Positions 7,615-64,000 of a stretch of 64,000 nucleotides of DNA are shown piece by piece. Every line of letters begins with the position of its first letter. Within the stretch, counting starts at the first letter, position 1. The DNA lies in NCBI GenBank assembly GCA_000091205.1, contig AP006488.2, one strand, 5' to 3'. Below the pieces are notes generated by a model that saw only the letters and a list, made by a program, of their open reading frames with translations, was not told the DNA's origin and searched no databases. This stretch comes from Cyanidioschyzon merolae. Its lineage: Eukaryota. A program made the translations under genes and the position numbers.

Positions 7615-9796
7615 GACCTCCAGAACGTCTCAAACTACGCACTGTTTACCAGGTAGGGTCAAACGCCCCCACGATCAGGCCCGAAAGACTCTGCCTAAGC
7701 GCTCGTGTTCGGCTCTGCGCTCTCCCGAACGTCGAGCGAATGACCTGTTGCGTAACTGCTGCCGCGGCGGCGGCAGCAGAGGCGAATGATGAGACCCAGC
7801 GCTTACCGAGTGCGCACTATAGGAAAAGGAACAGAAACGAACCTCTAACTAGCAAAGAGATCACATTTTCTTTCCTTCTCTATGATAAACATTAAAAGGG
7901 GGAACATGTTTTCGATATTTTAGAACGTTTACGTTATCGGCGGTAGGTTCCGCGAGCCGGACAAGACTGTCTGGGCTAGTGTATCACGCTCGTCCCGGTG
8001 GCGGGTGCTGTAGTGCGGTCTGAGCTGCAACTCGTCCAAACTGCAGTTTATTCTGGGACTTGATAGATTAGATCTCTTCCGGGTGTCGCCCTCGTTGCGG
8101 TGGACTCCACGTATATCGCTTTGCGCTGTCGCGTGCAGTGGGTTTGTCTGCGGAGCTTGCTGGCTCCGAGAATGATCATATACTCCGACTCTGTGTCAGG
8201 TGAAGCATTCCTCGATCCGACGCCCTCAGTAGTATGGCAACGCCGTTCTGTCTCTGTTATGCATCGGCATCAGCGGATTAGAGGGTAAGGCGGGTGCATC
8301 AACGCATGCACCCGACGAATGACAGGAAGCACGAGACGAGTAGTACATCCGAAAGGAAGTATACGTAATGGAATCTGGAGTTAGAATGCAGCATGATGGA
8401 TGCTTTCGCTGAATCCGATACCCATGCATAGCGCAACCTCGGATCCATTGTCAATGTGAGTGTTTTTCCATCGGAAAAATGAAGCACGTAGCTCTATCGT
8501 ACAAATTGTAACGATGTTCAAGTCGTAGAAAAGTACATTGTTTGTCCTCAATTGTGTTTCAACCTTCACACTAATGTATTCAAGTGCTTTTTCGCGCGTA
8601 ATAGCTGTCCCATCCAAAGCGGTTTCGGTTTTTATATTGAAAAAGGAAAGTTACGGAAGGGGAATTGGAGGATCCTGGGCGCCAGTGTCGCCGGCAGCCC
8701 GAAAAAACGAAGAACAGTGCCAAGTCCAAAGGAACAAGAGAAGAAGAAGAAGAAGAAGAAGTAAAAGCGGGAGGCCCTACGTCAAAGGCTACACAAAAGA
8801 CGACGGTACGACGAGATGGCGGTGAAAGCCTGTCTTCTTCAACATACCAAGGATCCGTACAGGGAAAACGTTCGAGAGGCAATCTGGAACCGTGTCGAGC
8901 CGAACTCAAGCGGTGTCCGTGACGCTTCCCAAGGAATGGCGCATTTCCTAAGGGAATGGTATCACGACGTTACGGACACCAAAACAGTCGAGGTTCTGGA
9001 AGAAATTTTCAACAAAACCTTTATTCATCACCGGATGCTTGGCACCGGGGAAACGTCTAGGTGAAATGAGCGAGTTCATGCCCTCCACAAAATTTACGCC
9101 GAATTCCGCTTCGACGGTACTCGATACAGGGGGGGATTCGAATATTTACACCTACGGGGCGATGAAGTACCTCACCAGTCTAAAGAACCATTTAACAATG
9201 AACCCCAAAAACTTCGATCGCCAGCATGAAAAGGAGATCGAATTCATCGACGAGACGACATCACTCAGGGGCATGAACGAGGATTCCGTCATCCGTACGG
9301 TTATACAAGAGCATCGTGCTGTCTTGGGACTGGCGAATCCAGCAGAAAAGATATCAGAGTGGAAAGAAGATAAGGAACGATACTATCGCCTCATCCTACG
9401 GTATTTCGTGTTTTTTGGCCGAGAACTCGAACGCAAGGCAGAGATGAAGCTGAGTGGGGAAAAAATGAAGAATGGGAGAGACGAAAGGCTGCGCTTCTGG
9501 GTAAGAGCTTAAACATCGTTCCGTTGTGAAACATCAAGTCACATTTTAAGACTATCGACTGCAGAGTCCTTCATGACATCATGAAGGAGATCTGTCCGGA
9601 GTTCGATGAACGGAAGACAGAGTTCACCGCTGAAAACCGGGAGACGTACTTGAAGAGTATCCTCAATTTCAAACGTCTCAAAGTAAGCAAGAAAAAGAAA
9701 TTCACTGGGATGATCGAAACCGATGGAGTATCTATATGTGTACACGATCGGCGGTTGAAGGTGGATCGTCCAGTCCTGCCTTCAGCCTCGCCCGTG

Positions 9797-10106
9797 ACGA
9801 AGCATGAAGGTGAGAAGGAGGCGGATCCTGCGATGCAGGAGTTGGAGGATAACGACCTTGGCGTTGACGTGGCGAAGCATGAAGAAAAGGAGAAGGCTGT
9901 TCCTGTGACTCAGGAGATAGAGCATAACGACCTTGTCGTTGACGTGACGAAGGATGAAGAAAAGAAAGAGGCGGATCCTGTGATGCAGGAGATGGAGGGG
10001 AACGACCTTGTCGTAGGCGCGGCGAATCATGAAGATGAGAAGGAAGCGAATCCTACCACGCAGAAAGCGCATGAGAACGACTTTGTAGTTGGCGCGGACC
10101 CCGGAA
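9797..10106 (+). repeat. Coding minisatellite inside Fanzor-like copy A. About 60 bp (20-aa) unit '[24 protein letters not shown]', roughly 4 tandem copies directly N-terminal to RuvC-I. The unit is a degenerate duplication of the RuvC-I strand.
   Basis: Protein-level tandem repeats 'NDLGVDVAKHEE / NDLVVDVTKDEE / NDLVVGAANHED / NDFVVGADPGSTN'. Copy B has 1 unit and copy D has 3. Confidence 0.7.
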
Positions 10107-10929
10107 GCACAAATATCATAACCATCGCTGCTCCCAAGCTCGCGGAAGATGGTATTGACGGGAACTTGCGTCAGAAATATATGCGTCTTCTGCGGCTCTC
10201 GAGAGCGAGATACTATCGACAATCGGGAATCATGAATGCGAGGAAGAAAATCGTTACGTGGAATGTAGGAATGAAAGAGCACCTGGAAGCTCTGAGTGAG
10301 GTGACGAGCCGAGGAGCGGACTTTCGAGCTTTTCGGTGATTCATGGAAGTTCGCGTTGCGCATTGGGATGCGCTATGGGAGGAGTATACCAAGCCCCGGT
10401 GGGCTCGTCTGCGTATGAATCGATACGGTGGGAAGCAGCGGGCGTTCGCGAATTTTTCAATCAGCCGAGCGCCTTGAAGGAGGATCAAAGTCAGAGGCTC
10501 GTAGTAGCGTATGGGGCACGGAGCTGGAAGACCAAAAAAGGGTGTACGCCAGCTCCAACGACAAGGGTGTACAAGGAGTGCGCACGGCGTTTCGTTACAA
10601 TACCTGTAGATGAGTTTCGAACATTGTATACACACCATGAACTGGGTTGTACACTTCAGCGAGTGGAGATGGAAAAGTGCCACAGGAGCCCTGAGGAAAT
10701 AGCAAAATACGGACCGTTGACGGAGGAGCAAATGGAAAGGAGGGTGAACGTTCGTGGATTACTTGCACTAGTAAGTACAACCAGTGATGGCAAGAAACGT
10801 ATGGAGTTTGTGAATCGTGACTTTAATGCCGCAATCAATGTACGGAGATGTGCGGTGCTGGAGAATAGACTTCCAGAGTCGACAAGAGTGAACTTTGTTG
10901 GACAACCTCTCAAAGTCGAATTATATGAG

Positions 10930-11075
10930 AAAAAGTTGGAAGCAGTCGTAGGTGGCCGGTCGAGAAACGGCGGGAAGGCGTCTGCACATCAGCTGGACAC
11001 GTTATGTCTAGGGCGCGGTTTTCCCGCCACTACGGTACACTGTCGGCGACGTCGTTCGACTTTCGAACGGCGTTT
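10930..11075 (+). ncRNA. Candidate omegaRNA/fRNA-like 3' scaffold of copy A. It is conserved with copy D through a terminal hairpin (cgttcg-acttt-cgaacg, extendable to about 10 bp) and diverges immediately after.
   Basis: A:D nucleotide identity across the C-terminal coding and 3' region ends at about 11075, and a palindrome sits at the boundary. By analogy to TnpB/Fanzor, whose guide RNA derives from the element's 3' end. No expression data. Confidence 0.3.
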
Positions 11076-11086
11076 GGAGGCGCGGC

Positions 11087-33567: not shown

Positions 33568-35061
33568 CTATTGCTCGAGGATAAATTCCTGAACAGGGCG
33601 TCCAAGGTGGCGCGCTATGGTACCGTTACTGTCTCGCGCCGGTCGATGCACCAAAACCTGATGCTGTCCTCTATTCAGACTTGTCACCGCAACATTCCCG
33701 TGCTGACTAGAGGACGTACCTGAGGTCGTGGGCATCGCGAAGCGCACAGTCTCCGCGTTCTGGACGATGACGTTCCCGGCGATGTCGCCGCTCCACGATT
33801 CCGTCTTGTTGCCGGCAGCGGCACCCGTACCGTCCGCATGGAGACTTAGCTGCACGAGTAGCAACGGACGACGCTCGATTTTCGCTCGTCCAAGCGTTAC
33901 AGAGCGACTTCGACCCGAGCGGGCGTCCACCGCAAGGAGTTCATCGCCAGCTCGCAGCTCGCAGAGATACTTGGTCGAGCCATCGGGGACAAGGATGTAC
34001 GAATGGACGGCACCGGCATTCACGCGAAAAGGCCTACTAGCAACGTATGGGTTCTGAGCAGCTTCGCTGAGCACCAGGGCCAGAGTGGAGGCGCTGGAGC
34101 CCACCAGAAACCCTTCGTGAAACGCCAGCAGCGAACAGGTGTCAAGACAAACACGCTCGCCAACACCAGCTTCGCGCACGTCCACAACCACAGCTGGATC
34201 CAATACGAGACTGTTTTCGAGCCGTTGATAACGATTGCGTAGACTAGCGAAGGATTCAACGGCGCTGGCGCTCCCTGTGGCCAGAATAACGCCATGGACA
34301 CCGCGCTCTAAGCTTGCAAGCTGTGCCTCAGCCATGCCCGTCGTCGACACGACAACGAGTATACTCGTTTGTCTCTGATACGCTACGCTGACCAGATTTT
34401 CAACGGGTATGAGTTCCCAGTCTTTCGTTTCAACCATGACAATAGAGCGGCAAGGCAGGTTTTCTTCCAGAGCGTGCACATCTTCCGCGGACTGCAGTTC
34501 GTAAAATACTGCGTATGTAGCACCGGTGCGCTGCTCCCGCACCAATCGTGGACAGGTTCCGTGTGCTACAATATATCGTGCATCAGTGGTTGGCTCTTTC
34601 CACTCTCCCCAGGTTGTCGCATGCTCGTGTACCAGAACGGGAAAAGCGAGGTCCACTGCACGCGCGTATGCCTCTTGAGTGGCAGGCATAACCCAGAATG
34701 AACGCGAACTTGACGATAGTGCGTGATCCGCGCGACGCAAAGCGGCTCCGTCTGCGTAGGTCTCTGCAACCTCCTGGATGAACTGAAGGGAACAGGCACC
34801 CAGAGAGTGCCTCTGTGAGCGTTCGACAGTCCGTCGACAGCGCCCGACGTGCCGGTGTCGCGGGCCCAGCAGCCTTGATCCAGTGTCTGGGTTCCTTGTG
34901 AACTTCCGTGGATGCGATTCTACATAAAATCCTGTTCGAGTCGGAGCGTGTGCTCTCAGAGAGCGAGCTGTCGACCAAAGAGCGGTTGCAGCGGCGCCAC
35001 CGCTCCACGAACACCTTGAGAAGCTCGGCGGACACAACCAGGAAACTGCTTGCGACGACAT
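33568..35061 (-). CDS. Archaeal-type 3-dehydroquinate synthase II homolog (DHQS-II, PF01959-like) with an N-terminal extension of about 120 aa.
   Basis: 'ERVCLDTCSLLAFHEGFLVGSSASTLALVLSEAAQNPYVASRPFRVNAGAVHSYILVPDGSTKYLCELRAGDELLAVD...GRAKIERRPLLLVQ' matches the conserved core of archaeal AroB' (DRVCIDTCSLM..GEGMLIGS...ENPYVATRPFRVNAGPVHAYIL...KIERRPLVL). 'KDWELIPVENLVS' matches 'RDWTIIPLENLIA'. True ATG. Confidence 0.75.
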   Translation of the reverse strand: MSSQAVSWLCPPSFSRCSWSGGAAATALWSTARSLRAHAPTRTGFYVESHPRKFTRNPDTGSRLLGPRHRHVGRCRRTVERSQRHSLGACSLQFIQEVAETYADGAALRRADHALSSSSRSFWVMPATQEAYARAVDLAFPVLVHEHATTWGEWKEPTTDARYIVAHGTCPRLVREQRTGATYAVFYELQSAEDVHALEENLPCRSIVMVETKDWELIPVENLVSVAYQRQTSILVVVSTTGMAEAQLASLERGVHGVILATGSASAVESFASLRNRYQRLENSLVLDPAVVVDVREAGVGERVCLDTCSLLAFHEGFLVGSSASTLALVLSEAAQNPYVASRPFRVNAGAVHSYILVPDGSTKYLCELRAGDELLAVDARSGRSRSVTLGRAKIERRPLLLVQLSLHADGTGAAAGNKTESWSGDIAGNVIVQNAETVRFAMPTTSGTSSSQHGNVAVTSLNRGQHQVLVHRPARDSNGTIARHLGRPVQEFILEQ

Positions 35062-45594: not shown

Positions 45595-48250
45595 AGTCGC
45601 GCCGGTGTTGAATGACCACCGCACGTCTTTCAAAGGAGAAACGTTGCCGCCGTCGGTATACAGTAGAAGCGAGGAACACGCTCTAGACAAAAAGTCTCCA
45701 ACTGATGTGCAGACGCCTCCCAGTCTTTCTGGACCGGGCACCCACTACAGCTTTCAACCTTGTCTCATATGGTTCTACATTGAGAGGTTGTCCAACAAAA
45801 TTCCCTCTTGTTGACTCTGAAGGTCTCGTCTCCATCACCGCGCATCTCCTTATATTGATAGCGGCGTTAAAGTCTCTGTTCACAAACTCCATACGTTTCT
45901 TGTCATTGATTGTACTTACTGATGCAAGTAGCCCTCGCACTTTCGCCCTCCTTTGCATTTGCTCTTCCGTCCGCGGTGCGTGCTTTTTTATATCTTCAGG
46001 GCTCCGCTGGCACTTTTCCATATCGACCCTTTGAAGTGTACACCCCCGTTCATGGTGTGTATACGATGTTCGGAACTTACCGACAGGTATTGTAACATAC
46101 CGGTGTGCGCACTCCTCGTACGCTCTTGTCGTTGGAGCCGGTCTACACACATTTTTGGGTCTTCCATCGCCCTGCTCCGCAGGCTACTACGAGCCCTCGA
46201 GCCTTGTCCTCTTTGAGGGCACTCAACTGATTGAAAAAGTTCACGAATACACGCTGCTTACCACAATACAGATTCATTCGCAGACGAGCCCGCCGGGGCT
46301 TGGTATACTCCTCCCACAACGGATCCGAATGGGCAACACGAACTTCCATGGATTTCCGAAAAACTCCACAGTCCGCGCCTCGGCGCGTCACCTCGCTCAA
46401 AGCTTCCAGGTGATCCTTCATTCCTGCATTCCACGTACCTATTTTCTTCCTCGCATTCATTATACTGGATTCTCGATAGTATCTCGTTCTCGGGAACCTC
46501 AAAAGACGCATGTCTTTCTGACGTAAACTACCATCAGTACCATTTTCCGAACGCTTCGGTGCTGCGATTCTTATGATATACGTATTCCGAGGGTCCGCGC
46601 CAACGCCAAAGTCGTTATCCTGCACTTTCTGTGTCGCACGATCCGCCTCCTTCACATCTTCATGGTTCGCCGAGGACGGACCAGGACGATCTCTCTTCAA
46701 CCGCGGATAGAGTACACACATGGCTACTCCATCGGTTTCGATGATCCCAGTGAACAACTTTTGCTTGCTCACTTTGAGAAGTTTGAAATCGAAGTTGTTC
46801 TTCCAGTGCGTCTCCTGGGTATCACCGGTGAACTCTGTCTTCCTTACGATGAACTCTGGACTGATCTCCCTCATGATGCCGTAAAGGACGCCGGAGTCGA
46901 TAGTCACAAAATGTGACTTGATGTTGCATATTGGAACCCCGTTGAAGCGCTTCCCCATTAGAAAAGCCTTCCGTCTCTCCCACTCTTCATTTTTTTCCTC
47001 ACTCAGCTTCACCTCTGCCTTGCGTTCGAGCCCTCGGTCCAGAGACACGAAATACAGCAGAATGAGGCGATAGTATCTTTCCTTATCTTTTTTTCAACTC
47101 TGATATCTTGTCGGTTTGGTTCGCCAACCCCAAGACTGCATGGTGCTCTTCTATAAGCACACGGATTACAGAAGCTATATTCGTTCCCCTGTGTGACGCC
47201 TTCTTGTCGACAAATTCGATCTCATCTTCATGTTGCGATCGTTCATGATGCCGTTGATAATCGCCCATATTTCTTTGCGAGAGATGTTCGGGTACAGTGC
47301 AAACACGGCGCGTACCATAAAACGTTCGAGATTCAAAGTCAAATGGCTCTTCAGGTTCGTGATGTACTTTATCGCCCCGTATGTGTACATATGCGAGTCA
47401 CCCTTGTATCGATTACACTCAAAGCTGCAAAAGGGATGTTTTTCGTGGAGAGCATGCACCCGATCATTTTTCCTTCACGTCCCCGCTGTACCAAGCATCA
47501 TGTGACGAATAAACGTCTTGTCGAAGAACTCGCCCGGAATCTCGACGGTTGCCATGTGCGTCACGTTTTCGTACATCTCCCTCGCCCAATGCATCAGTCC
47601 TGACGAAGCCTTGACAATACTCTTGGAGTACGAGTCGACGCAGTTTTCGATAGCGTCTCGCAGCTTTTCCCTGTAGGGATCCTTGATTTGTCCAAGAAGA
47701 GAGGTTTTCACCACTATCTCGTGGTACAGTTGTCGTTCTTGCAGCCTTCGACATAGGGCCTTCCCCTTTGCTTCTTTTTCTCTTCCTTTTCTTCTGGACT
47801 CGGCACTGTATTTGTTTCTCCGGCAGCCGGCGACAATGGCGCTCCAGGATCGTGGACTTGCTTTTTCATAGCTTTCCTTTTTTGGGGTTTTTCGAAAAAG
47901 AACGCTCTTTGAACCCTTCTGTTATATACTGCGAAAAAGCACTTGACTAGACATGTTTGAGGGCTGAAACACAAATGAACTGAAAAATTGTACTTTGCTT
48001 CGACTCCAACGCAAATACAACTTTTTCCGGTAGAACAACACGTCAACGAATGGTCAGGACTACGTTTCTCTTCCACTGTGAAAAGCGCGTTGTATTTCAT
48101 GCCTTTCAAATATGGAGGTGCACAACTCGACAGAATTATTTAGAACAAAGAACAGATACTCACGATACACGACAAACGATGTAACGATTTCATTCCCCCT
48201 CTACGCTAAACGTTGACAGGGGAAGAAGCTTTCCGCATGTTAGAATGTTT
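45595..48250 (-). mobile_element. Fanzor/TnpB-like element copy B (degenerate, at least 4 frame breaks). Its 3' end lies about 190 bp upstream of the PepN start.
   Basis: Homologous to A and D over the leader, coding region and 3' tail. Its 3'-tail hairpin is degraded. Confidence 0.55.
45683..47869 (-). pseudogene. Fanzor/TnpB-like nuclease pseudogene (copy B). Pieces: 47714-48109, 47475-47714, 47175-47459, 47083-47268, 46143-47048, 45683-46150.
   Basis: RuvC-I '[18 protein letters not shown]'. RuvC-III 'RMEFVNRDFNAAINIRRCAV'. Copy-specific frame breaks. Confidence 0.6.
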
Positions 48251-48419: not shown

Positions 48420-49235
48420 CATTCGATGGTACGCCAACGCTGTTCTGTCTCTGTACAGCATCCGCTCCAGCGGTACAAGCGCTGCGGCGGGTGCTCACTG
48501 CAGGCTCGGCGCACGAACGAACGCACAAATCGACCAGTCTAGCGGAAAGGGAGTCTAAGTAATGGAACCTGGAAGTAGGGTGCACCATGATGGGCGCTTT
48601 CCCGAAAGCCGATATCCATCCCGCAATCCGTGATCCACGGTCAACGGATAGGTTTTCTCAGGCCAGAAAAAGAACAAGACACGACGCTCGTGCCGCCGTT
48701 CAAGGGAAACGCCATCCTGATCAATAGCGTGTTGTTCAGCTGTGAAAGTCAGACTTCCGTTCAGGCCGTAGCCAAGCACAGTCTTTCAGTTCCTGTTTGT
48801 TTCGAACTTCAAACAAGTCTAGTCAAGTGTTTTGTCGCAGTATGTAACAGAAGCGTTCACAGAGCGTTCTTTCCAAAAAAACAAAAAAAGAATAGTTATG
48901 AAAAAGCAAGTCGACGATCCTGGAGGCCCAGGATCGCCGGCTGCCAGAAAAAAACAAAAAACATTGCCGAGTCCAGTAGAAAAGGAAGAGAAAAAAAGCA
49001 AAGGGGGAGGCCCTATGTCGATCGCGGCAACAAAGTCGACTGTACAACGGGATGGTGGTGAAAGCCTGTCTTCTTACACATCTCAAAGATCCGTACAAGG
49101 AAAAGTTGCGAGACGCTATCAGAAACCATGTCGACTCGTACTCCAAGAGTATTGTAAAGGCGTCTTCCGGACTGATGCATTGGGCGAGGGAGATGTACGA
49201 AGACGTGACGCACATGGAAACAGTCGAGACAATAT
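48420..49235 (+). mobile_element. Fanzor/TnpB-like element copy C: 5' fragment only (leader plus the first roughly 110 codons), head-to-head with copy B.
   Basis: ATG at about 48897 'MKKQVDDPGGPGSPAARKK...RGRPYV...MVVKACLLTHLKDPYKEKLRDAI...VTHMETVE'. Homology is lost after about 49235. Confidence 0.5.
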
Positions 49236-51294: not shown

Positions 51295-54250
51295 AGCGCC
51301 GCCTCACGCACCATCAACGCCGTTCGAAAGTCGAACGACGCCAACGGCGTACAGTAGTGGCGAACGCGCCCCAGACAAGAAGACGCCATTTGACGTACAG
51401 ACGCTCCACGTCTTTCTGGACCGGCCACGCACTACAGCTTCCAACTTTTTCTCATGTAGTTCGACTTTGAGAGGTTGTCCAACAAAATTCCCTCTTGTTG
51501 ACTCTGAAGGTCTCGTCTCCATCACCGCGCATCTCCTTATATTGATAGCGGCGTTAAAGTCTCTGTTCACAAACTCCATACGTTTCTTGTCATTGATTGT
51601 ACTTACTGATGCAAGTAGCCCTCGCACTTTCGCCCTCCTTTGCATTTGCTCTTCCGTCCGCGGTGCGTGCTTTTTTATATCTTCAGGGCTCCGCTGGCAC
51701 TTTTCCATATCGACCCTTTGAAGTGTACACCCCCGTTCATGGTGTGTATACGATGTTCGGAACTTACCGACAGGTATTGTAACATACCGGTGTGCGCACT
51801 CCTCGTACGCTCTTGTCGTTGGAGCCGGTGTACACACTTTTTGGGTCTTCCATCGCCCTGCTCCGCAGGCTACTACGAGCCCTCGAGCCTTGTCCTCTTT
51901 GAGGGCACTCAACTGATTGAAAAAGTTCACGAATACACGCTGCTTACCACAATACAGATTCATTCGCAGACGAGCCCGCCGGGGCTTGGTATACTCCTCC
52001 CACAACGGATCCGAATGGGCAACACGAACTTCCATGGATTTCCGAAAAACTCCACAGTCCGCGCCTCGGCTCGTCACCTCGCTCAAAGCTTCCAGGTGAT
52101 CCTTCATTCCTGCATTCCATGTACCTATTTTGTTCCTCGCATTCGTTATGCCAGATTCTCTACAGTATCTCGTTCTCGGGAACCTCAAAAGGCGCATGTC
52201 TTTCTGACGTAAACTACCATCAGTACCATTTTCCGAACGCTTCGGTGCTGCGATTCTTATGATATTTGTGTGTGTAGGGTCAGTGCCAACGACATGGTCG
52301 TTATCCTGCACTTTCTGTGTCGCAGGATCCTCCTCTTTGTATTCTTCATGCTCCGCCGCGTCAACGACAAGGTCGTTATCCTCCACTTCCTGCGTCGCAG
52401 GATCCGCCTCTTTCTCAACTTCATGCTTCGCCGTGCCAACGACAAGGTCGTTATCCTCCACATTCTTCGTCTCAGTATCCGCCCGATCCTTTTCTTCACC
52501 CTTCGAGAGGAACGAAGCCGAGGGCGGAACTGGACGATCATTCTTCAGCCGCCCGATAATGTACACACAAGGCTACTCCATCGGTTTCGATCATCCCATT
52601 GAATACCTTTTGTTTGCTGACTTTGAGCCGTTTGAAATCGAAGACACTCTTCCAGTACGTGTCCCGGTTTCTCGCCGGTGAAGTCCTCCCTGCTGACAAT
52701 GTACTCCGGACTGATCTCCTTCATAATGCCGTGAAGGATTCTGGGGACGATAGTCACGAAATATGCCTTGCTATTGCACATGGGAACCACGTCGAAACGC
52801 TTTCGCATTAGGACAGCCTTCCGTCTCTCCGACTCTTCATTTTTTCCCTCACTCAGCTTCACCTCTGCCTTGCGTTCGAGTTCACGGTCCAGAAACACGG
52901 AATACCGCAGAATGAGGCGATAGTATCTTTCCTTATCTTTTTTCAGCTCTGGTACCCTGTTTGTTGGATTCGCCAACCCCAGTACCGCACGGTGCTCTTG
53001 TATACCCGCACGGAATACAGAAGCTTCATTCGCGCTCTCGTTTGACTCCTTCTTGTCCACGAATTCGACCTCATCTTCATGCTTGCGATCGTTCGTGATG
53101 TCGTTGATAATCGCCAATTTTCCATTACAAGAGATGCCCGGGTACAGCGCAAAGACGGCACGTGTCATGAAACGTTCGAGGTTCATCGTCAAATGGTTCA
53201 TCAGTTCCGTGAGCTACTTCATCGCTCCGTATGCATAAATATCCTGGTCACCCCTGCTTCGAGTACCCTCGAACCTGTAAAAGGGATGTTCTTCGTGGAG
53301 GGCGTGAATCCGCTATTTTCACTCCGTGTTTCCCCTGTGCCAAGCATTAGGTTACGAATAAAGGTCTTGTCGAAAAACTCGTCCGGAACCGCGACTGTTT
53401 CCATGTGCGTCACGTTTTCGTTCATCTTCATCACCAAATGCATTAGCCCTGACGACGCCTTTCTAATACTCATGGAGTACGAATCGACACGATTTCTGAT
53501 GGCGTCTCGCAATTTTTCCTCGTACGTATCCGTGATATGTCCGAAAAGACAGGCTATCACCACCGTATCGTCGTACATTCGTCTTTCTTGCGGCCCCTGA
53601 CTTCGGGCCTCCTGCCGTTTCTTTCTTGTCCTCTCCTTTTCCTCTGGACTAGACACTGCTTTTTGCTTTTCTCTGGCAGCCGGCGACACTTGGCGAACAG
53701 GATCTCTGACTTGCATATCCATAGCTTCTCCTTGGATTATTCATTTTTTCAATATAAACGCACTCCGATGCTCCTGCTGAAAACTGCGAAAAAGCATTCG
53801 ATGACGCTCACCTGAAGTTGGAACTAAAGTGAGATGATAGTCCATGAGTAGAAAGAGCAGGTTTGCCAGCAGGAGGACGCGGATTATGAATCATTTCATT
53901 AATAGACCCCCAACGTGGGGGCAGATCTACACTCATTTCTGAAAAAACGAGGACCGACCCTCTAAATCGGGAGAAAAGACTAGGCTTTGGGTCGCTTCTC
54001 ACTTTCGTCAATACCAGTCTTGAGGGGCATGATGTTTGACTACTTCCCTTGTCTCTCTCATATGCGCCTGTAGCAACGCAGAATTCTCTTGTCCCTCTAG
54101 CTCCGTTTTCAGAAGTAGAAGGATGTTGATGGCAGTGTCAAAGCCACCATTTCACTGCTTCCGGCTGCTGCTCACGCACTTAATGCTCGAACGGGAGATG
54201 CGATCTATGCTTTGCTTGCCATTTGCGTCTTCCTCGCGTAAAGTCGCGGT
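51295..54250 (-). mobile_element. Fanzor/TnpB-like element copy D (best preserved; about 2 frame breaks). Its 3' end lies about 80 bp upstream of the LPAAT start.
   Basis: Longest intact segment: ORF 51304-52566 spans RuvC-I to RuvC-III. Leader homology to A and B extends to at least 54020. Confidence 0.6.
51304..53722 (-). pseudogene. Fanzor/TnpB-like nuclease, likely a pseudogene (copy D). Pieces: 53219-53722, 52545-53201, 51304-52566.
   Basis: RuvC-I '[17 protein letters not shown]'. Zn-finger-like 'YEECAHRYVTIPVGKFRTSYTHHERGC..MEKCQRS'. RuvC-III 'RMEFVNRDFNAAINIRRCAV'. The RuvC-II position reads 'GLVVACGAGRWK'. Confidence 0.6.
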
Positions 54251-56304
54251 GCGCTCATCGCGGCGATGACATCTGATTGTGGTCAAGTGTTCCCCTATGT
54301 ACCCGAAAACTGTCCTTCCAAGGGCGGCCCTGCAGATCATGAACCCTTTCTTCATCGTCCGGCACATACCAACTTGACAGCCAGGAAAGGGTCCTGTCCG
54401 TTCTCTCCTCCGTTTCCGGGTCCGACGGCGAACTCTACGATGACGTGCTTGAGCTGGGTGACTACTTGGCGAGTACTATGTCTGCTGCGCGCCCGAGTGC
54501 TCGCTGTTCTATTCGATAGAGGATTCACGGAACGCTATGTTGACCATGCTGAAACAAGTACCAGAAGGAAGCTCCAGGTTGTGAAAGCGCTTGAGGGCTC
54601 TCGATCCATGCACGCCCCCAGGCTCAAAGCTGTGGCGGAATCTCGAGTGGAAGCGATCGCAGCGACGACTCTAGTTCCAGTCCAAGAAACTTTTCCAGGC
54701 GGAAAAATGAGATGGGTGCATCTGGGAGCATATCCCGTGAGCCAGGTATCATTCTGCTGCCGAATATATTTCGTCGATGACGATGAACAGAGAAGGGTTT
54801 AACTTTCGAAAGGAAACGAGTTTTTTACGTGAAATATCGGGAGCTCTTTCGGCATGGGCTGTTGAAGAGCTCGCCAAGACACATTGTCGAGCTTTCGCTT
54901 CCTCATTAATGCTTCGCCATGAATCGCTGAACAGACGAGATGACTTGAAACAGAGAAACGGACAATTTGAACATGGCTCTCCTGGGCGTTGTAAAAGTTA
55001 GGGAAGCAGAATGGTAAAGGCCTCCACCAATGAATCGGATTACAGTGTCGGTGGCTTTATGGAAGTTTGCTCGAGGATGTTGCATATCACCTTGATTACG
55101 ATGATGTCACGGATTCCGGCAGGAAAAACTTCGAAGGGGCCAGTCCGATAAGACGACCTAGAGTCCAAGTATAGGTATTCGTCCGTGAACGCGTACTGCA
55201 ATAGTTTGGATCTCGGGGCTCCACATCTAAGAAAACGCTCGAAAAAAAGCGCAATGCAAGAACAGCGCAAATCGTTCAGTACTCGAATATAGTTTAGCAA
55301 GGGAATTGGAGCTGAATGGCCAGCTAGGCAGTCTATAGAAGAAAATCGTTTTTTTACGCCTGTTCAGCCTGGCCGTCTTCATGCTCCAGATGTATTCCGT
55401 TGCCGGTTTCTTGGCTAAGGTTTCCATTAGTACTGAACGCGTTTCTTCACAAGGCACATCGCTGTAACCTGGTGGTTGTGTGCGACTCCTGTGGAAACGT
55501 CGGATCATCGGGTCACATACGGGCAATATTCGAAGCTATCATAAGCTCATCCGATTCTTTCGAGCATTTGGAAAAGCTTTATCACCAATTGCAGGGAGCA
55601 TTTAGTCGGTGAATTTGTCTTTAGCGTTTGGTAGACTTATGCGTCAAAAGAGCGTGTGGCTGAACCTTATTCGAGCAATGCTCATCCGCTGTCTAGTGCA
55701 TCTATGGTCCATATCTAAGAGGTTGCACGTTGCTAATGAAGAATTTTACAAAACACGACGACAAGACAAAAAATCACGATACCATCTTCGCCTTGGACCA
55801 TGCTTTCAGCGAGGCGGCCTCCAGACTCGCTCGTCCGTCGAAACCTGCACGTGTTATTTCTGATGGCACCTACTGCAGCACCAGGACGCGCGGACGCAGC
55901 TAAGGTTGCCTCTGGAGACGGTGCCGACATGATCCAAAAGGTGGAACTCGGTCAAGTTCGGCGAGCTTTCGCAACAAAATATGGAATTGGATACAGCAAA
56001 GGCAACTCTGAGTGCAGAGCACTGCCAGTAGTCTCTGTGTTTCGGATCCCATATAGTAAATAAATGTTATCAATCTGTACAGCAAGTCTTGCAAGTTTCT
56101 AACTAGCTGGACAAACTGCGGCCACAGATCCTCTGGCGACGATATCGAATCACAATTGAACATTGGCTTGAGTCGTGTCGGTTGAGCGATGTAGGAGTCT
56201 CGGCCTAGACGAATAGACTCGGTCTGCGAATCGCTTGACGTACGGGTTCGGCGCAGCATGCTGATGCCAATAAAGAAGCGAGATTGCAGCGAGAGCTCGA
56301 TTCT

Positions 56305-57516
56305 CTATGACCTACTGGCCTCCTGTTTTGTAGATTCGCGAGTCGGGCTTGGGATTCTGGAGGCTCCTAGTCGCCAGGTCAAGGGCTCCACTCCGGTAAC
56401 ATGCCAAATCAACATTTCCAGGCCTCGAAAAAAGCCTGTATCATCGAGCAACTGATTACACCAACCCGAGATAATGCAGTACTTTTCGTGGTAGGGGCTT
56501 TGATGATGTTGACCATGTGCTCGTTGGCTGATGAGCCATCCCGATCGTTGCAGAAACATGGCGAAGCTCGGTGGCCGAATCATGTGGCTCCATTTGTGGA
56601 ATTCCTGCGCAAAAGCAACACTGAGAAAGAAAACGCAGCTGAAACTCCGTAAATAGATTGATGTCCATTCAGCAGATGTGCCCCATGCGCCACTAAATGC
56701 AACCAGGAGCAGCGGTAATAAACTATTCACGCAGCTCTTGAATACGTTATTGCAAAAATCACGATGCGTGATCGTCCATGGATACTGATGGTGGCCCTGA
56801 AAAGCAGCAATCTGTTCCCCAAAAATGGGTGTTTCTCGGGACCCATAATTATCGAGGAAGAAATGGTAAATGCCGGAGGCGAAGTCGGCCATGATGTACG
56901 CGAAGAGAGCTGTAGCGCCCTCAAGCGCAACGCGAACCACTGGATAAAGATGTGCCGCTTGCGGTGTCTCGGCTGCCAGAAGGCAATGCATCTCCCAGAA
57001 TATCCGAAGCATCGCAAAGACACCAAGAGAAACTGTTGCCGCGACAACAACTTTTTCCTGGGGCGAGGATTCGAGCCGATCGCGCTCTAGAACTAGCGTC
57101 GCTTCCTTTTTTGGTTTCCGCACCATGCCTCTTCGCAATGCAGGTATCGATTCTCTCTCAGGTATCAGGTCGGTGTCAGCACTGCTGTGAAGTGTCCCGA
57201 CAGCGCCTCTCCCGCGGTGCAATTTTCGACCCGTAGACAACCGACCACTTGCGAGAGACTGTGCAGAGATTGCGACCACTTGACCGAGACGGAAGCGGGA
57301 CAGACCGGGGTCTACCTCAGCAACAACCGATCTTCGACTCTGAATTGCACGTCCCATTCGCAAGATTGTGCTGAACGTAGGTGACAGGAAGGCCAAGGTG
57401 CTGCAAGCGTTCACCCTCGCCTCACACTGCACGCTCCGCTTCTCCATACCTAGCGCCTCCCTGTCAAGCATACCAGTACCTGGTGCCGAATCATTTAGAA
57501 TGTTGCCACAAGACAT
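56305..57516 (-). CDS. TMEM189/CarF/FAD4-family membrane lipid desaturase (Kua domain) with a long N-terminal extension.
   Basis: His-box motifs 'FAQEFHKWSHM' and 'HGQHHQSPYHEKYCIISGWCN' in the membrane C-terminal half. True ATG at 57516. Confidence 0.55.
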   Translation of the reverse strand: MSCGNILNDSAPGTGMLDREALGMEKRSVQCEARVNACSTLAFLSPTFSTILRMGRAIQSRRSVVAEVDPGLSRFRLGQVVAISAQSLASGRLSTGRKLHRGRGAVGTLHSSADTDLIPERESIPALRRGMVRKPKKEATLVLERDRLESSPQEKVVVAATVSLGVFAMLRIFWEMHCLLAAETPQAAHLYPVVRVALEGATALFAYIMADFASGIYHFFLDNYGSRETPIFGEQIAAFQGHHQYPWTITHRDFCNNVFKSCVNSLLPLLLVAFSGAWGTSAEWTSIYLRSFSCVFFLSVAFAQEFHKWSHMIRPPSFAMFLQRSGWLISQRAHGQHHQSPYHEKYCIISGWCNQLLDDTGFFRGLEMLIWHVTGVEPLTWRLGASRIPSPTRESTKQEASRS

Positions 57517-59864
57517 AAAAATCGGAGCTCAATTGATCCAAAAAGCTTCGTAGGCAGGCACAGCCGGTTCACTTTTCCCAGAAAAAATTCCGCTTCCGTG
57601 ATCGTAGCATCGCTATGGTGAATGGCGCATCGCCGTGGCGGGCACCGCCCCGCGTGCGTCGGATGCGGCACATGTGGGAGTGATGGATATTCTAGACATT
57701 TGCGCACTGATACCCCACCGAAGACGACGGCTTTGATGTATTCACTTGTTTTTGCTGTTTCGTGACACCGTTCAGCTCTTGCTGAACATGACTGACGCGC
57801 TGCTATGTGACGACCTGTACAAAAGCTTAATATAATTTTGAGAGGGAAACCAGGGCTGCTGCCCTCTTGGAACGCTCCGGGCTGCTGTTACCTGCGTCAG
57901 GAGTAGTACTAGGTTTCGAGGTAGCAGACTGTCAGGGTACGCAGTGTGGGACTTGAAAACCTACTTTAACCCGTTCAGGGACTGGAATCCCACTCTGCAG
58001 ACACTGTTACTAGGTACGCTGGGGTTTCCTGGGTTCCAAAACGCTTTTCTGGTGCAGGACTGGCGTCTGACAGGACGGTGAGCGTCTGGCGCTAAGATAG
58101 GCTGTTTGGTGCCGTACAGGCTTCAGAGACTCACGCCAGAGTATTTGTCGTGGCCGGAAATTGCGCAGGGGGCCATAATCTGTGTGGGGAACTATCTCAT
58201 GGTCAGATACTCTCGGCAGTTTACCCGCAGTCTGTCATCTCGAGCCCCTCTGCTGACCGAGATAGACCCGCATTCCTGCGGGTATGGGCGTAGTTGCTTA
58301 TTTTTCAGAACATGGCACTCAAATATACTTTTGGTGATTCGCTATAGTCCTCCGTTAGTTGAATATATGCTCGAAACTGTCACCTGAAAGGGTCAAGGTT
58401 GTAAGACAGCTTCCAACCTGCCCTGTGGCCCGTGCACGCTATACGAGCAGCCTGCAAGCTAGATGACCGTAAGATGGACACGGTCTTGTTGGACAAATTC
58501 GGTTCATACCATCACGGGGATTTCGAGCACTAGTGAGTCCAAAATTCGTCGTATCCATCTAGAACGAGTTTCCGTATAGCATACGAAAGCTATGAGTGGC
58601 TGGCAATTTTTCGCCGCGCAAAATTCAAGCAGCTCATGTGTCCCAGATCTGGGAAGGCTGCTGCTAGAAAACGCATAATCATATACCTCATATGAAAAGA
58701 GATTCAGCAGCGTCGCTTCCGCGAATACGGACTTGCAATGGAGTCGATCTCGACTCTGAAGTGGACGTCCCGCGAAACGCCATAGATTAGCGCTCGCTGC
58801 AGGTTGTATGTGTGCCCTTTTCAGCCTGAACCGCGATACGTGTACTGCGAACAACGAGCAGTATAGAAAGTTGTTCCCAACGCCCCCATGTGGAGTCTAA
58901 GATTTCGTCGCACTCTTCTTGGACTGGCGAGTGAGGGCAGCCCACCAATGTTTTCATCATTACATAAATCGTAGCTAAAAGTTGAGAAGGTCTAATCCGT
59001 GTGAACGAACGGGTCCGAGGTATCGTCCTCATCACCTGGGAGTTGAGACAACGATGTAAATGGTCGTTGCTTCTTTCACCCGCTGTGAACGATTTCCTAT
59101 AAGCTCCGTTGTTCCTCTGAACAATCAAACGCCATCTGGACGTTGTGGCAATAGGAAACAGCAGAGGTCACGACTTGCTTGCTCCTGGATGCAAATGGTA
59201 TCGCGCACAGCATAAATTCCTTCTGTTTTCGTCAGTGGCTGAGACCTAAAGCATTTTTTTACCGTAAAAATATCCTATTGTGGGTGTCTGAATAGTACAG
59301 CAAGAGAAAAACTACAGCGTCGGTAGAAGGCCGTGAAACCGGTTCCTGCGCGACCTCGATTACAAGTTGCTTGATTCGGTGGAAGCTTGTGAGCCACAAA
59401 CTGGTTCTGAGTTGAAGTGATTGAACTTGGACGTTAAAAGTGCACAGCCGTCGAGTCGAGCACCGCACTAGTCCCTGCCCACACGGGTGACGGCTTCGAG
59501 CCTGCACAAAGATCGGCCGAGATAGGATACTCCCTTAAGGCACATTTGGACAGATTCAAGTAGAGTTGCTGCGGGTTGAGCCCTAATATCGCAACACGGA
59601 CGCATTTTCCATGTTTGTGTGACACCTCCACTCCTGGAAACGAGCCCTGCGTGAAACCCTCAATTACGTGGCCATTAGAAGACCCCTAACTGTGATCAGG
59701 CAGTTTCCAAGTGAGTTGGAAGGGTTGGCTCCGACGCTCTGCACCTGGTGGACTGCATACTGGCAATGAGAAGTTTGGATTTGTAAAACACTATCCGCGG
59801 ACCGCGCCAAGGCTGGGGCGAGCGTGGCAGAGGCGTCAATTATAGGCTTGCTTCCTGCGCTGCT

Positions 59865-62649
59865 ATGCTGCGCTTCTTCATGGCCTATCTGTGGTTCACG
59901 ACTTCTTTGAAGGTTTCATGCGCCGCGCAGGCTCCTACGTATGACGTACGGTGGACCTGGATCGGTGGGTACCAGGGTGTCAATCACCCTGGCCAGTACG
60001 GGGCTCTGAACGAGACCTCTGCCAGCAGCGTGCCGAGCACTCGTTATTTACCAGCGGCTTGGGCTGAAGCCCACGGTTTAGTGCATTTGTTAGGTGGTTA
60101 CGGGTATGGAAACACTACTTTCGGCTATCTGAATGACTTTTGGATGTTTAGACTCAGCTCTTTTGAATGGACTTGTATCGGTGGCTCATCAGAGGCCGAC
60201 GAGTCGGGGCACGATGGCGCGTTTCAGGTAAGAAGCCCTAATAATATACCCGGTGGTCGATACGGCTGCGCTTACTGGCAGACTGATGTGCATCATCTCT
60301 GGCTGTATGGCGGGCCTGGACTCGATGCATACGGGTATCGAGGTTCCCGAAACGGCATCTGGATGTACGACAGTGAGAGCGGGAGCTGGACATGGGTTAC
60401 CGGGAGTAACAGCACTGATCCTTCTGCGGCGTACGGGCCCATAGGGACTTGGGACTCTAACTATAATCCTGGAGCCCGATCCGAAACCGGCGTCTGTATG
60501 CGTTTGGATGACTCCGTGTGCCTGTTTGGTGGCTTGAAAGAAATCGATTCTTTGTCTGACCTGTACTGCTTTTCTCCCGCATGCCGTCAATGGGCTATCA
60601 TGAATGGATCTCAGGTAGCGAATCAGCCTGGAAAGTACAACGAGCCTGGAGTTGCGAGCAAGCCGAACGCTCCTGGGCACGCAAGGGCCCCGTCACGTGG
60701 ACGGATACCGAAGGAAACCTTTGGATGTTCGGGGGATTCGGATAAGTGGACAGTTCATCACGGCCCGGTTACCTGAATGATCTATGGCTCTACAACACGA
60801 GTCAGTCAGTCTGGATCTATGTGGCGGGCAATGCGTGTATCGATTCTCCTGGATCTTATGGGTGATTCGGTTCGTTCAAATCGAACATGTATCCCGGTGC
60901 AAGAGGTTTGGGCAACGGGTTCGTGGATGCAATGGGTAACCTGCTGCTCTGCGGTGGTATCGGTTATTCACCAGCTACTGATGCAGTTGGATAGGTTAAC
61001 GATCTTTGGGTTTTCGATGTTGCTCAGAGGCAGTGGGCATGGATATGTGGAAATTCGTCGGTGAATGGGGATCCCGTGTATGAATTTCAGTACGAATCTA
61101 ATCCATATGTCGCGCCTGGCGCCCGGTATGGGTCCGCCCTGTGGAATACCAGTGGAAACGATCCGATAATATTTGGAGGGTACGGATCATATTTAAGTAC
61201 GAATGGATTTCTTAATGATGTCTTCGCGCTCGACGTATCAGTGACCGCGTCAACACCAACACCGACACCGACACTAACTCATAGACCATCACCGACGCCG
61301 ACACCGACACCGACACCAAATCGAACACCAACACCAACGTAGACGTCGACACAAACACAGACACGAAAGCCGACGACAATGCTGACGCCGCTGCCTACTC
61401 CAGCAATAGCCGGTATCGCATTCTCTGTGGTTGTCAGTATAATGAACAAGACCGTGTGTGTTGATGTTGCGGTCGTTCTCCGGGATAATCTAGAGGCAAC
61501 GCTGAATGGAACTGGAGCTAACGTCACTGTGTCGGATAACTACGATAGTATCTTCGTGTCAATAGCCTCGCGCTTCGCCGATTCGTACGAGAGAAGCAGC
61601 CTCGACTTTCGACGTGTATTCAGCGCGACATCAGCAGTGAATGCAAGCTACAATGTCTCTATCCTGGCACCTACTGCACTCGTATCCAATGTGACGGAGA
61701 TCTCTACCAATTTTACAAGTAGCGTTCCAAGAATCCTGCCAAGGGGAGCGAGTCTCGTTGCGGTCTCGACGCCGACAGTTGTGCCAACACCCACACCGAC
61801 ACCAACACCGACACCAACACCGACACCAACACCGACACCAACACCTTCAGCAACGCATACGCCTTCCGTCTCAGTGTCGCCCTCACCGACAGCAAATGTT
61901 ACACAGGTCCCTGTGGGTGGCGGAACTGGGGTCTGCTTCCCAGAGGATGCCTCAGTGCTTATTGAGGTCTTGGCAATACGCGGCGGATAAGCGAATTGCG
62001 TCCAGGTATGGCCGTGATTTGCGTCGATTCACGTGGGCGACTCTTCGAGGACACAGTTCTGGGGTGGTTGCACAAAGATTTTCGCGCCACAGCAGAAAAC
62101 CTATTGATCAAGACGCGTTCGGGGAAGGAGCTGCGCTTGACGAGGCAGCATCTGGTGTACCGGATGAACGAGAACCCGAGAGTCCCGGGTCGCAAAATGA
62201 CAGCTGTGTCGAGTCTTTCACATTAGAAAGAGCAGCACATACAGAAGATCCTCGAACTGGAGACGTCTGTAGGTGAAGCGGTTTTCGCAGAAGATATCCG
62301 CATAGGCGACGCTTTATTCGACATTGCTGCACACCTGCCAGACCCCGTGGTGGCAATTGACACTCTCGTTACGAGTGATGGCCTCTATGCGCGGCTGACG
62401 CGCTCAGGGCGCGTTGTGGTCGACGGAATCCTTGTTAGCTGCTACGGGACCTATGCATCACACACTGTGGCACATGCTGCATTGTGGCCTGCGCGGGTTG
62501 AACTTTTGCGCAAGATATGGGGATCAGCGCTCGGCTCTGACAGCACAGAAGGTATCATGCCATATGCAGAAGGACTGTACCGCGTATGGACAAGTGCAGC
62601 GCGTATTCTGAAAGATAGTCGCGTGAATGCTATAGCTGTTGCCTGCTAA
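59865..62649 (+). pseudogene. Disrupted gene for a secreted Kelch-repeat propeller, Thr/Pro-rich linker and Hedgehog-type Hint (Hog) domain with an ARR/SRR-like tail.
   Basis: Signal peptide 'MLRFFMAYLWFTTSLKVSCAAQA'. At least 6 Kelch units (GGYG...LNDLW). (TP)n linkers. Hint: 'GVCFPEDASVLIE', 'RPGMAVICVDSRGRLFEDTVLGWLH', 'LLIKTRSGKELRLTRQHLVY', 'GLYARLTRSGRVVVDGILVSCYG...AHAALWPARV', 'IMPYAEGLYRVWTSAARIL'. Frame path 0>2>1 with frameshifts near 60690 and 61966. In-frame TAA (~60741), TGA (~60863), TAG (~60991), TAG (61340) and TAG (62227). Confidence 0.65.
61790..61850. repeat. Hexanucleotide (ACACCG/ACACCA)n tract encoding (Thr-Pro)n in the Kelch-Hog linker. A similar tract lies at about 61240-61340.
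   Basis: caccgacaccaacaccgacaccaacacc... Confidence 0.8.
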
Positions 62650-64000
62650 GAATGCGCTGCGAAGCAAAGAAGGGGTAGAGCTGATACTGGAGACCAATTC
62701 TGAGATGCCTCGCAGACACTTTGCGACTTTTTTTACGAGTATTATTCGTAGTAGGATTCTCCGAACCGAAAAAGATCCAGGGAGAGGCTGTTTTGACAAG
62801 CGGACCAAGAACGGAATTCTAGCACTAATAAGGAAGGTGAAATTCATTCCAGGCAGAGGATTTCCGCAAAAGAGGAGTCCAGTCAGAAATATTTGTCGAG
62901 AAGAAAAAACTGGTGAGAAGAACCATCCATGGCTACAGCATCCGAGGTAGTCCGATTGAAAAAGGCGCGATCAACTCTACAGGTGCATGGATCGTTGGGA
63001 TTCCATGGGTGCTGTCAGGTGCCAAAGTCATCCGTCGAAATATGCTCCAAGTGAGAATTTACCGGTTTGATATGTGGATATGCTCATGTACGGATGAGCG
63101 CGAATTCGATGTTCGATCGAAGGGAAGCTACCAGTTCTCCAAATGGGATAAATTATATCACGTCGCGGGAGAAAATGATATAATGTATGATACGTTAACC
63201 AGATTTGCGCTGGACGGAAAAAGCCAAAAGTGTTTTATAGAGGCTCGAGCTTTCCACTCAGGCACAGGAACGACAACAGAAAGATTCGCGATGAAAAGCG
63301 TAAACATATGAAAGATACCTACTGGAATCTCGTCAGTTATGATGTGCAGAAAAAACAGCACTGGGGTACAATTAGAAGTACAAGACAGCAGACCTAATTT
63401 GAAGAGACGTATGGAGGGGAAACAAGCGTCCGTGAATTACCAGAAAAAGTTACATTTAAGACAATGGAAACCTAACAATAAAAAATCTCATAAAAAATAC
63501 CAAAAAAAGAATCGCCCCTAGAGGAAGCATCCAACACATAAGCGTTATTGAAACTAGAAGAGGGGCTAACAGTATAAAGCGACGATTAATTACAGGGCCA
63601 AATTTTGCTCATATGCCAAATAGAGGGAAGAAAGCCAAAGGATTTGATATAACCAACATACAAAATGAGACACTATTATTGAGAAACGGAAGCAGGGTGA
63701 CGAAAAAATGTTAAAAAGGAGAAGGCGCTATGAGAATGTCCGCAGAAAGTGCCCAGCAGTACTACGTAGTGTAGAGAACGGTATTTCCAATAAACAGTGC
63801 CACATACCCAACAACCTGCACAAAATTGAGATCCACTATAAGAGCAGCAACCGACTCTCAACTATTCTGTGCCAAAGAAATCAAGATGTACAAAATGGAG
63901 CAAAATACAGCAATAAAACAATGCGAAGAATGCAGAACAAAAATCGGATAACACGGAAAGAAAGGAAACGGCGGAAGCTGGGGAGAATGGGGGGAATGGG

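Follow-up and report, generated by a model that had tools for sequence, protein, structure and literature searches.

The right end of chromosome 6 in Cyanidioschyzon merolae carries a probable pseudogene of the subtelomeric Kelch-Hint family

The last 64 kb (right end, 6R) of chromosome 6 of the red alga Cyanidioschyzon merolae 10D, which we refer to as the window and number from its first base, contains a gene remnant at 59865-62649 on the + strand whose protein is spread over three reading frames and interrupted by stop codons. A preliminary description made from the letters alone had read it as a secreted protein with a Kelch propeller and a Hedgehog-type Hint (Hog) domain, and had offered two explanations for its state: a recent pseudogene or low-quality sequence. 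We wondered which of these holds, and what the gene would have encoded when it was whole. Our analysis indicates, with a probability of roughly 93%, that the remnant is a real pseudogene that the annotation lacks, and that it belongs to the Cyanidiales subtelomeric family of Kelch plus Hint (K+H) genes; the 10D copy can make no full-length product.

The reading of the three frames as one protein held up: a three-frame translation of 59700-62800 reproduced every peptide that had been quoted from it. Frame 1 holds the N-terminus and three and a half Kelch blades, frame 2 the other blades, the linkers, a middle segment and the start of Hint (GVCFPEDASVLIE), and frame 3 the remainder of Hint, with the reading stepping one base back at 60675-60677 and again between 61965 and 61966. 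Stitched together, the parts are a likely signal peptide, a Kelch propeller of six blades, a first Thr-Pro linker, a middle segment of ~125 residues, a second Thr-Pro linker and the Hint/Hog domain. Kelch, a Thr/Pro/Ala linker and Hint in one gene near a telomere is the definition of K+H membership (Cho 2023). The architecture proposed for the locus was recovered by profile hidden Markov models (HMMs) and by alignment to human Sonic hedgehog (SHH).

The start codon and likely signal peptide (MLRFFMAYLWFTTSLKVSCAA) occupy 59865-59927, where a hydrophobic N-terminus leads to a small-residue site (SCA/AQ) and the sequence aligns with the N-termini of paralogs. A signal peptide is plausible on these grounds, and the Plant Cell 2026 supplement gives the paralog CMF001C the class SP(Sec/SPI). 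The beta-propeller follows at 59946-61240, in the frame of 59865 up to 60677 and in the frame of 60677 from there on. Seven Kelch-type Pfam families exceed their cut-offs on the stitched protein (among them PF24681 9.4e-25, Kelch_3 9e-14 and Kelch_4 5e-13; the accessions include PF13415, PF13418 and PF01344), a result well outside what chance would give, and tblastn matches of the Cyanidiococcus proteins P0007 and P0002 span 59871-61231 at 42-55% identity. The blades can be counted straight from the sequence by the pattern W.W..G ... PG.R ... GG.G ... LNDLW: at least six had been claimed and there are exactly six, which should be enough for a closed propeller. The mucin-like linker 1 (61244-61378, tandem repeat at 61251-61352) is joined by the open frame of the middle segment (61379-61783) to linker 2 and its Ser/Thr/Pro-rich lead-in to the cleavage site (61784-61927, tandem repeat at 61784-61845). 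The Hint/Hog domain, including the final stop codon (TAA 62647), extends over 61928-62649.

This frame is broken in the 10D copy by seven lesions, two 1-bp deletions and five in-frame stops, and the longest open reading frame (ORF) left, of 303 residues (59865-60776), ends within blade 4; a functional K+H gene would be a single uninterrupted frame. The first deletion is the loss of one G from a G run at 60675-60677 (CCT GG(G) GCA CGC, PG/ARKGP), as seen by comparison with SNAPGARKGASTW in the paralog P0007; it had been placed near 60690, and the overlap of the peptides NAPG (60666-60677) and ARKGPVTW (60677-60700) at base 60677 locates it. The second deletion, of one base (T or A), lies between 61965 and 61966 (LIE/GLGN). 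The five stops were all as predicted, in the order TAA, TGA, TAG, TAG and TAG. The TAA at 60743-60745 falls in blade 4 (GGFG-stop) where paralogs have GYG (Tyr), the TGA at 60863-60865 is private to the 10D reference, the TAG at 60992-60994 interrupts blade 5 (G-stop-VNDLW), the TAG at 61340-61342 lies in linker 1, and the TAG at 62224-62226, in a variable Hint loop, is again private to the reference. Three of them had been attributed to single-base changes of Tyr or Cys/Trp codons. This is right for 60992, where an environmental relative retains TAC (Tyr), and probably for 60743; the TGA at 60863 is also a single-base change, but from Ser (TCA).

Are these lesions real? An independent 9.3-kb metagenome contig (L002, JGI sample 3300050354) carries the orthologue of the neighbouring gene CMF187C, is 97.9% identical to window 54757-63999 and reaches into telomere repeats, and a metagenome scan with the Hint peptide returned seven further contigs from this chromosome end. 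The broken clade has four members: 10D, L002, L011 and L010 all lack the same base at 61965/61966, reading GA-GGT where L008, L026 and L006 have GATGGT and L009 has GAAGGT. The G-run deletion at 60675-60677, TAA 60743 and TAG 61340 are common to 10D, L002 and L011; L010 covers 61784-63998 only, so the region of the first frameshift is outside it. At other positions the broken copies differ. The stop at 60992 is TAA in L002 and the intact TAC in L011, both contigs have TCA at 60863, and all seven other sequences have GAG (Glu) at 62224. The relatives have extra or private stops of their own: TAG 60881 in L002 and L011, 60591 in L002, and two more in the Hint part of L010. Between 10D and L002, 2.84% of sites differ in the dead gene, against 0.99% in the neighbouring gene, and for the Hint part the ratio of nonsynonymous to synonymous substitution rates (dN/dS) ranges from 0.32 to 1.5 when a broken copy is involved and from 0.11 to 0.32 between intact relatives, which are under purifying selection. 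This is the pattern expected of a dead gene decaying independently in related lineages, and one that errors in a single assembly could not yield.

The suggestion to look for intact copies proved fruitful. In five contigs (L006, L007, L008, L009 and L026) one frame stays open all the way from the edge of the contig, within linker 1, to the stop codon, and Thr/Pro/Ala codons occupy the site of TAG 61340 in the broken copies. The pseudogene is hence confined to one lineage. In the downstream flank, L008 and 10D are only 3.8% apart, and the members of the broken clade 1.6-2.4%. This small divergence, together with the lesions that the clade holds in common, dates the inactivation to the interval between the separation of the L008 lineage and the divergence of the four broken haplotypes, a recent event, as had been suspected. 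As a separate observation, L009 and L006/L007 differ from window 61969-63930 by 17-21% in the telomere-side flank and by only ~4% in the Hint-coding part, which reflects either strong conservation of the gene or recently copied paralogous ends that are not strict orthologues.

Several points weigh against this account of a real and simply decaying pseudogene. The stops at 60863 and 62224, seen only in the 10D reference, could be reference errors, though the gene is dead regardless. "Intact" applies to the 3' 45-60% of the gene, since the intact contigs break in the Thr-Pro repeats and none reaches the Kelch half. Among the broken haplotypes, dN/dS is 0.44-0.57, not 1, in the Kelch and middle parts. 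An exact-sequence look-up of every ORF of the dead gene in the protein collection gave no match, but this silence is weak support for calling the locus unannotated, since the called genes of L002 were also missed. The ordered gene table (Plant Cell 2026 supplement), in which CMF187C (BAM79536, window 56305-57516) is the final chromosome 6 protein and CMG221C of chromosome 7 comes next, is the stronger evidence that the locus is unannotated. A literature search for the identifiers CMF186 and CMF188-CMF192 found nothing.

A further point against it is the mosaic genealogy of the locus. In a comparison of window 59600-62800 with L002, L010 and L011, divergence is several times higher in the dead gene body than in either flank, and the nearest haplotype to 10D changes along the way: it is L011 upstream of the gene and L010 downstream of the stop codon, while in the Hint part 10D and L002 have one difference in 769 bp, against ~4% in adjacent sequence, with the switch at linker 2. 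There, at 61835-61840, L002 and the window also have an in-frame length difference of 6 bp. The divergence of the gene body and the conflicting genealogies imply that simple neutral decay on one tree is not the whole story. The pattern may stem from ordinary recombination that breaks within the Thr-Pro repeats (a sexual cycle is documented for the group; Plant Cell 2026), from chimeric metagenome contigs or from short contigs of poor quality. Gene conversion from paralogs was considered as the source of the excess changes in L010 and was not supported: of its 25 private bases, 4 are found in any of the six paralogs sampled.

Another reading is that the locus keeps a residual role, either through a truncated protein (the 303-residue product with a signal peptide and 3.7 blades, or a 213-residue Hint-only ORF in L002) or as a silent gene-conversion donor, like archival surface-antigen cassettes. 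We regard this as very unlikely. Hint-only and Kelch-only genes do occur in the family, but a partial propeller is unlikely to fold, and the Hint-only ORF begins past the nucleophile Cys, with TAG 62224 interrupting it in 10D. A retained product would fit the dN/dS below 1 among broken haplotypes in the Kelch and middle parts, but not the additional stops and numerous amino-acid replacements that L010 and L011 have in Hint. A donor role would suit the near-identity of the 10D and L002 Hint parts and the genealogies that switch at the second Thr-Pro repeat; yet ordinary recombination or chimeric contigs can also produce mosaicism, the private changes of L010 do not resemble the six sampled paralogs, and no database paralog is more than 70% identical to the remnant Hint, so there is no evident recipient.

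Less probable still is an intact gene with sequencing or assembly errors at a chromosome end that is hard to clone. It is true that 34 out of 40 chromosome ends had been obtained by special polymerase chain reaction (PCR) and cloning (Nozaki 2007, PMC1955436), that the first frameshift lies within a G run and that two stops are private to the reference. However, contigs assembled independently and ~2% different from 10D repeat both deletions as well as the stops at 60743 and 61340, the relatives carry additional stops of their own, long ORFs in the remaining 60 kb of the window are intact and the same as deposited proteins, and for five of the seven lesions the explanation by error is already refuted. 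The choice between recent pseudogene and low-quality sequence hence falls to the former, as both frameshifts and several stops are in independent contigs and the neighbouring genes are intact. Expression of the locus through introns, programmed frameshifting, readthrough or a variant code has a negligible chance of being correct: it has no direct support beyond the existence of introns in 27 C. merolae genes, the stops and shifts lie in conserved blade and Hint motifs that align to paralogs without gaps, so no intron could remove them, the neighbouring genes use the standard code and normal stop codons, and the lesions are polymorphic among close relatives, with sense codons at those sites in the intact ones.

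With the pseudogene established as the best reading, the Hint domain can be compared with that of animal Hedgehog proteins. The Pfam search that had been recommended gave a clear result: the frame-repaired translation matches Hint PF01079 with E=2e-35 and 122.7 bits against a cut-off of 29.7, over profile positions 10-207 of 213. The intact relative L006 reaches 126.5 bits (E=1.4e-36). In a phmmer search of solved structures, human SHH (7e2i_G) was found at E=2e-14 with the catalytic positions aligned, and only Hedgehog proteins were returned for the remnant Hint. The nucleophile Cys codon is at 61934-61936 in a Gly-Val-Cys-Phe context, and GVCFPEDASV aligns to SHH GGCFPGSATV (C198). TRQH is at 62140-62151, where LTRQHLVY aligns to LTAAHLLF (T267-x-x-H270), and VSCYG is at 62434-62448, where VSCYGTYASHTVAHAA aligns to SHH ASCYAVIEEHSWAHRA (the S-C363-Y block). 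A stretch resembling a sterol or adduct recognition region (SRR or ARR), IMPYAEGLYRVWT, had also been noted; it starts at 62554 and does fall inside the Pfam Hint match, but its separate alignment to SHH GIHWYSQLLYQIGT, where the sterol-recognition region starts, is weak and by itself not significant (-2.0 bits).

The general-base position is different. It is His in the remnant (WLHKD, 62065-62079), as it is in P0001-P0006, and Asp, the activator of the sterol hydroxyl, in SHH (FLDRD; D243) and fly (D303). The fly D303H enzyme keeps its structure and activity and has a wider sterol range (Zhao 2019, as reviewed in PMC9163320), and because it retains activity, His at this position is compatible with lipid transfer and would fit sterol transfer without proving it.

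The remnant shares with the HhC of animal Hedgehog proteins (human SHH 7e2i, Drosophila 1at0/6td6) the Gly-Cys-Phe nucleophile, T-x-x-H and S-C-Y, and may have a weak counterpart of the sterol-recognition helix, while it differs in the general base and in having no Hedge signalling domain: a Pfam scan of the stitched protein found no HH_signal match to an N-terminal Hedge (HhN) domain, and the N-terminal half is the Kelch propeller. Proteins of this type have been reclassified as non-Hedgehog (non-Hh) Hog proteins (Plant Cell 2026). A Hog Hint fused to an unrelated secreted N-terminal domain is also the organization of non-Hedgehog Hog proteins in protists, red algae and mosses, whose Hog domains resemble those of animals and not inteins (Burglin 2008, PMC2362128), and the PF01079 match and the Hedgehog-only structure matches of the remnant agree with that finding. 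Burglin 2008 does not cover Cyanidioschyzon ("merolae" occurs 0 times) or describe the Kelch partner ("Kelch" occurs 0 times).

Searches among 5.8 billion proteins place the remnant in a Cyanidiales family. The top matches are Kelch+Hint proteins (E=1e-164 to 1e-209) from C. merolae (P0003 and P0004, "similar to hedgehog protein"), Cyanidiococcus yangmingshanensis (P0002 and P0006) and hot-spring metagenomes (P0001 and P0005); no gene in the C. merolae records has exactly the P0003 or P0004 product. Identity to the C. merolae and metagenome copies is 66-70% for Hint, and the Kelch part is nearest to Cyanidiococcus P0007 (Kelch+trefoil) and P0002 (Kelch+Hint), at 46-48% identity. That the two halves have different nearest relatives suggests domain-wise shuffling or concerted evolution within a species. 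The 6R copy has the part order and subtelomeric position of the Cyanidiales K+H genes (CMF001C, CMC002C, CMP358C; Cyanidiococcus CCYA03G1141), and it differs from them in being dead and in having the extra ~125-residue segment between two linkers.

Much of this family is on record. "Hedgehog protein" genes were mapped to chromosome ends by Nozaki 2007 (PMC1955436), in which the 6R end had no DNA homology to other chromosome ends. Cho 2023 described subtelomeric genes in which Thr/Pro/Ala linkers connect Kelch (K), trefoil (T) and Hint (H) domains, and counted 11 K+H copies for Cyanidioschyzon; H3K27me3 lies on Hog genes (Mikulski 2017); and C. merolae has 17 Hog genes, expressed mostly in haploid cells (Plant Cell 2026). 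In Supplementary Dataset 5 of Cho 2023, the Cyanidioschyzon chromosome 6 end is given as "X <T,H>", with "<>" defined as a pseudogenized gene. Both the family and the dead state of the 6R copy are thus already published, the latter just as a table symbol. We looked for the trefoil remnant that "<T,H>" hints at and found none, the trefoil-bearing part of P0007 having no tblastn match in the window; most likely, "T" stands for the Kelch half, which resembles K+T genes annotated "trefoil factor". What is new here is minor: the lesion-by-lesion history, the intact alleles in nature and the undescribed middle segment.

The middle segment had been noted as N-glycosylation-rich. It does have six N-x-S/T sites, but it is not just linker: it is an extra module, in frame and conserved in the intact relatives L006 (~370-800), L007, L008 (~60-470) and L026. 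L009 has no such segment and a single long Thr-Pro linker instead, and the seven closest database relatives also lack it. The segment matches no Pfam family, with no HYR match at E up to 1 for the window version and up to 10 for two intact versions, and a word-indexed search found no match among the 5.8 billion proteins. A single-sequence AlphaFold model had a mean predicted local distance difference test (pLDDT) score of 35.5 and was discarded. A full HMMER scan of 1.84 billion representatives returned one match, P0156, a protein with six HYR_4C repeats, at ANVTVSDNCD...RVFSATSA (48 residues, 35% identical), with an E-value inflated by the six near-identical repeats; we take this weak likeness as a lead only. 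As the family HMMs do not match, assignment to a HYR or HYR_4C Ig-like module is not supported, and the segment is an undescribed module.

The presence of this module allows a more speculative proposal, which we think unlikely to be right: the 6R copy might represent a distinct K-linker-M-linker-Hog subtype, in which M is an orphan module selected in wild relatives and lost with the gene in the lab-strain lineage, and the Thr-Pro repeats might act as recombination joints. Such joints would explain the missing module of L009, the genealogy switch at linker 2 and the differing nearest relatives of the Kelch and Hint halves. If this were true, the K/T/H surface-protein genes would diversify by linker-mediated domain shuffling, dead copies included.

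The position of the remnant follows from its surroundings. Gene numbers in the ordered table ascend along the window (CMF178C, 179C, 180C, 181C, 182C, 185C, 187C), three neighbouring ORFs are letter-for-letter the same as the C. merolae 10D proteins BAM79525, BAM79531 and BAM79536, and the last 22 bases (63979-64000, + strand) are the start of a tandem telomere repeat, (AATGGGGGG)n, whose unit is the published C. merolae telomere repeat (PMC1955436). The gene order CMF178C-CMF187C and the terminal telomere repeat identify the window as the right end of chromosome 6, with the remnant between the last annotated gene, CMF187C, and the telomere, ~1.3 kb before the repeat. L002 extends the telomere repeat 51 bases further than the window; in the reverse complement of this contig, the last 51 bases have degenerate telomere units (GGAATGGAA) preceding canonical AATGGGGGG repeats. 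The sequence between the stop codon and the telomere (62650-63978) is A-rich and GC-poor (GC 0.41), and L002, L010 and L008 diverge by 1.6-4.5% there. The GC-poor window end had been taken as a possible sign of poor sequence; it is telomere-adjacent sequence instead.

The rest of the window is eukaryotic and near intron-free, with long intact ORFs for Sec23, MCM5, symplekin, GatB, a type II dehydroquinate synthase, APC4, aminopeptidase N and others. The type II (archaeal-type) 3-dehydroquinate synthase gene, at 33568-35061 on the - strand (PF01959, 6.5e-81), lies on a red-algal nuclear chromosome, and its product, BAM79531, is annotated merely as "hypothetical protein, conserved". A dispersed repeat of ~2.4 kb is present in 3 or 4 copies that are 75-99% alike (45650-48090 and 51310-53800 on the + strand, 9215-11079 and 48680-49230 on the - strand). 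Its ORFs have no Pfam match, and it also adjoins intact Kelch+Hint paralogs in metagenome loci L012-L027. The repeat may be a mobile element, or may travel with subtelomeric gene blocks.

By analogy with Hedgehog, the intact form of the gene would have encoded a precursor that enters the secretory pathway. Its Hog domain would then carry out an N-to-S acyl shift, converting the Gly-Cys peptide bond into a thioester, which a sterol or other nucleophile would attack. This would release the Kelch propeller on an O-glycosylated Thr-Pro stalk, probably lipid-anchored, as a glycoprotein on the surface of haploid cells, which have no wall. The secretion, the glycosylation, the chemistry of autoprocessing and the role at the surface are all inferred from such comparisons. 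In the lineage leading to 10D, 1-bp deletions and nonsense changes disabled the gene, which has drifted since.

The gain is mostly one of annotation, as an explicit pseudogene model replaces a blank at the right end of the reference chromosome 6, and it illustrates that a broken gene of several domains can be correctly recovered by reading raw sequence. The intact environmental alleles offer a ready starting point for an autoprocessing assay of a red-algal Hog domain with His as the general base. For the organism, the finding means that the laboratory model 10D has lost one member of a surface-protein family that its wild relatives have kept, which is relevant to studies of Hog and Kelch proteins in 10D.

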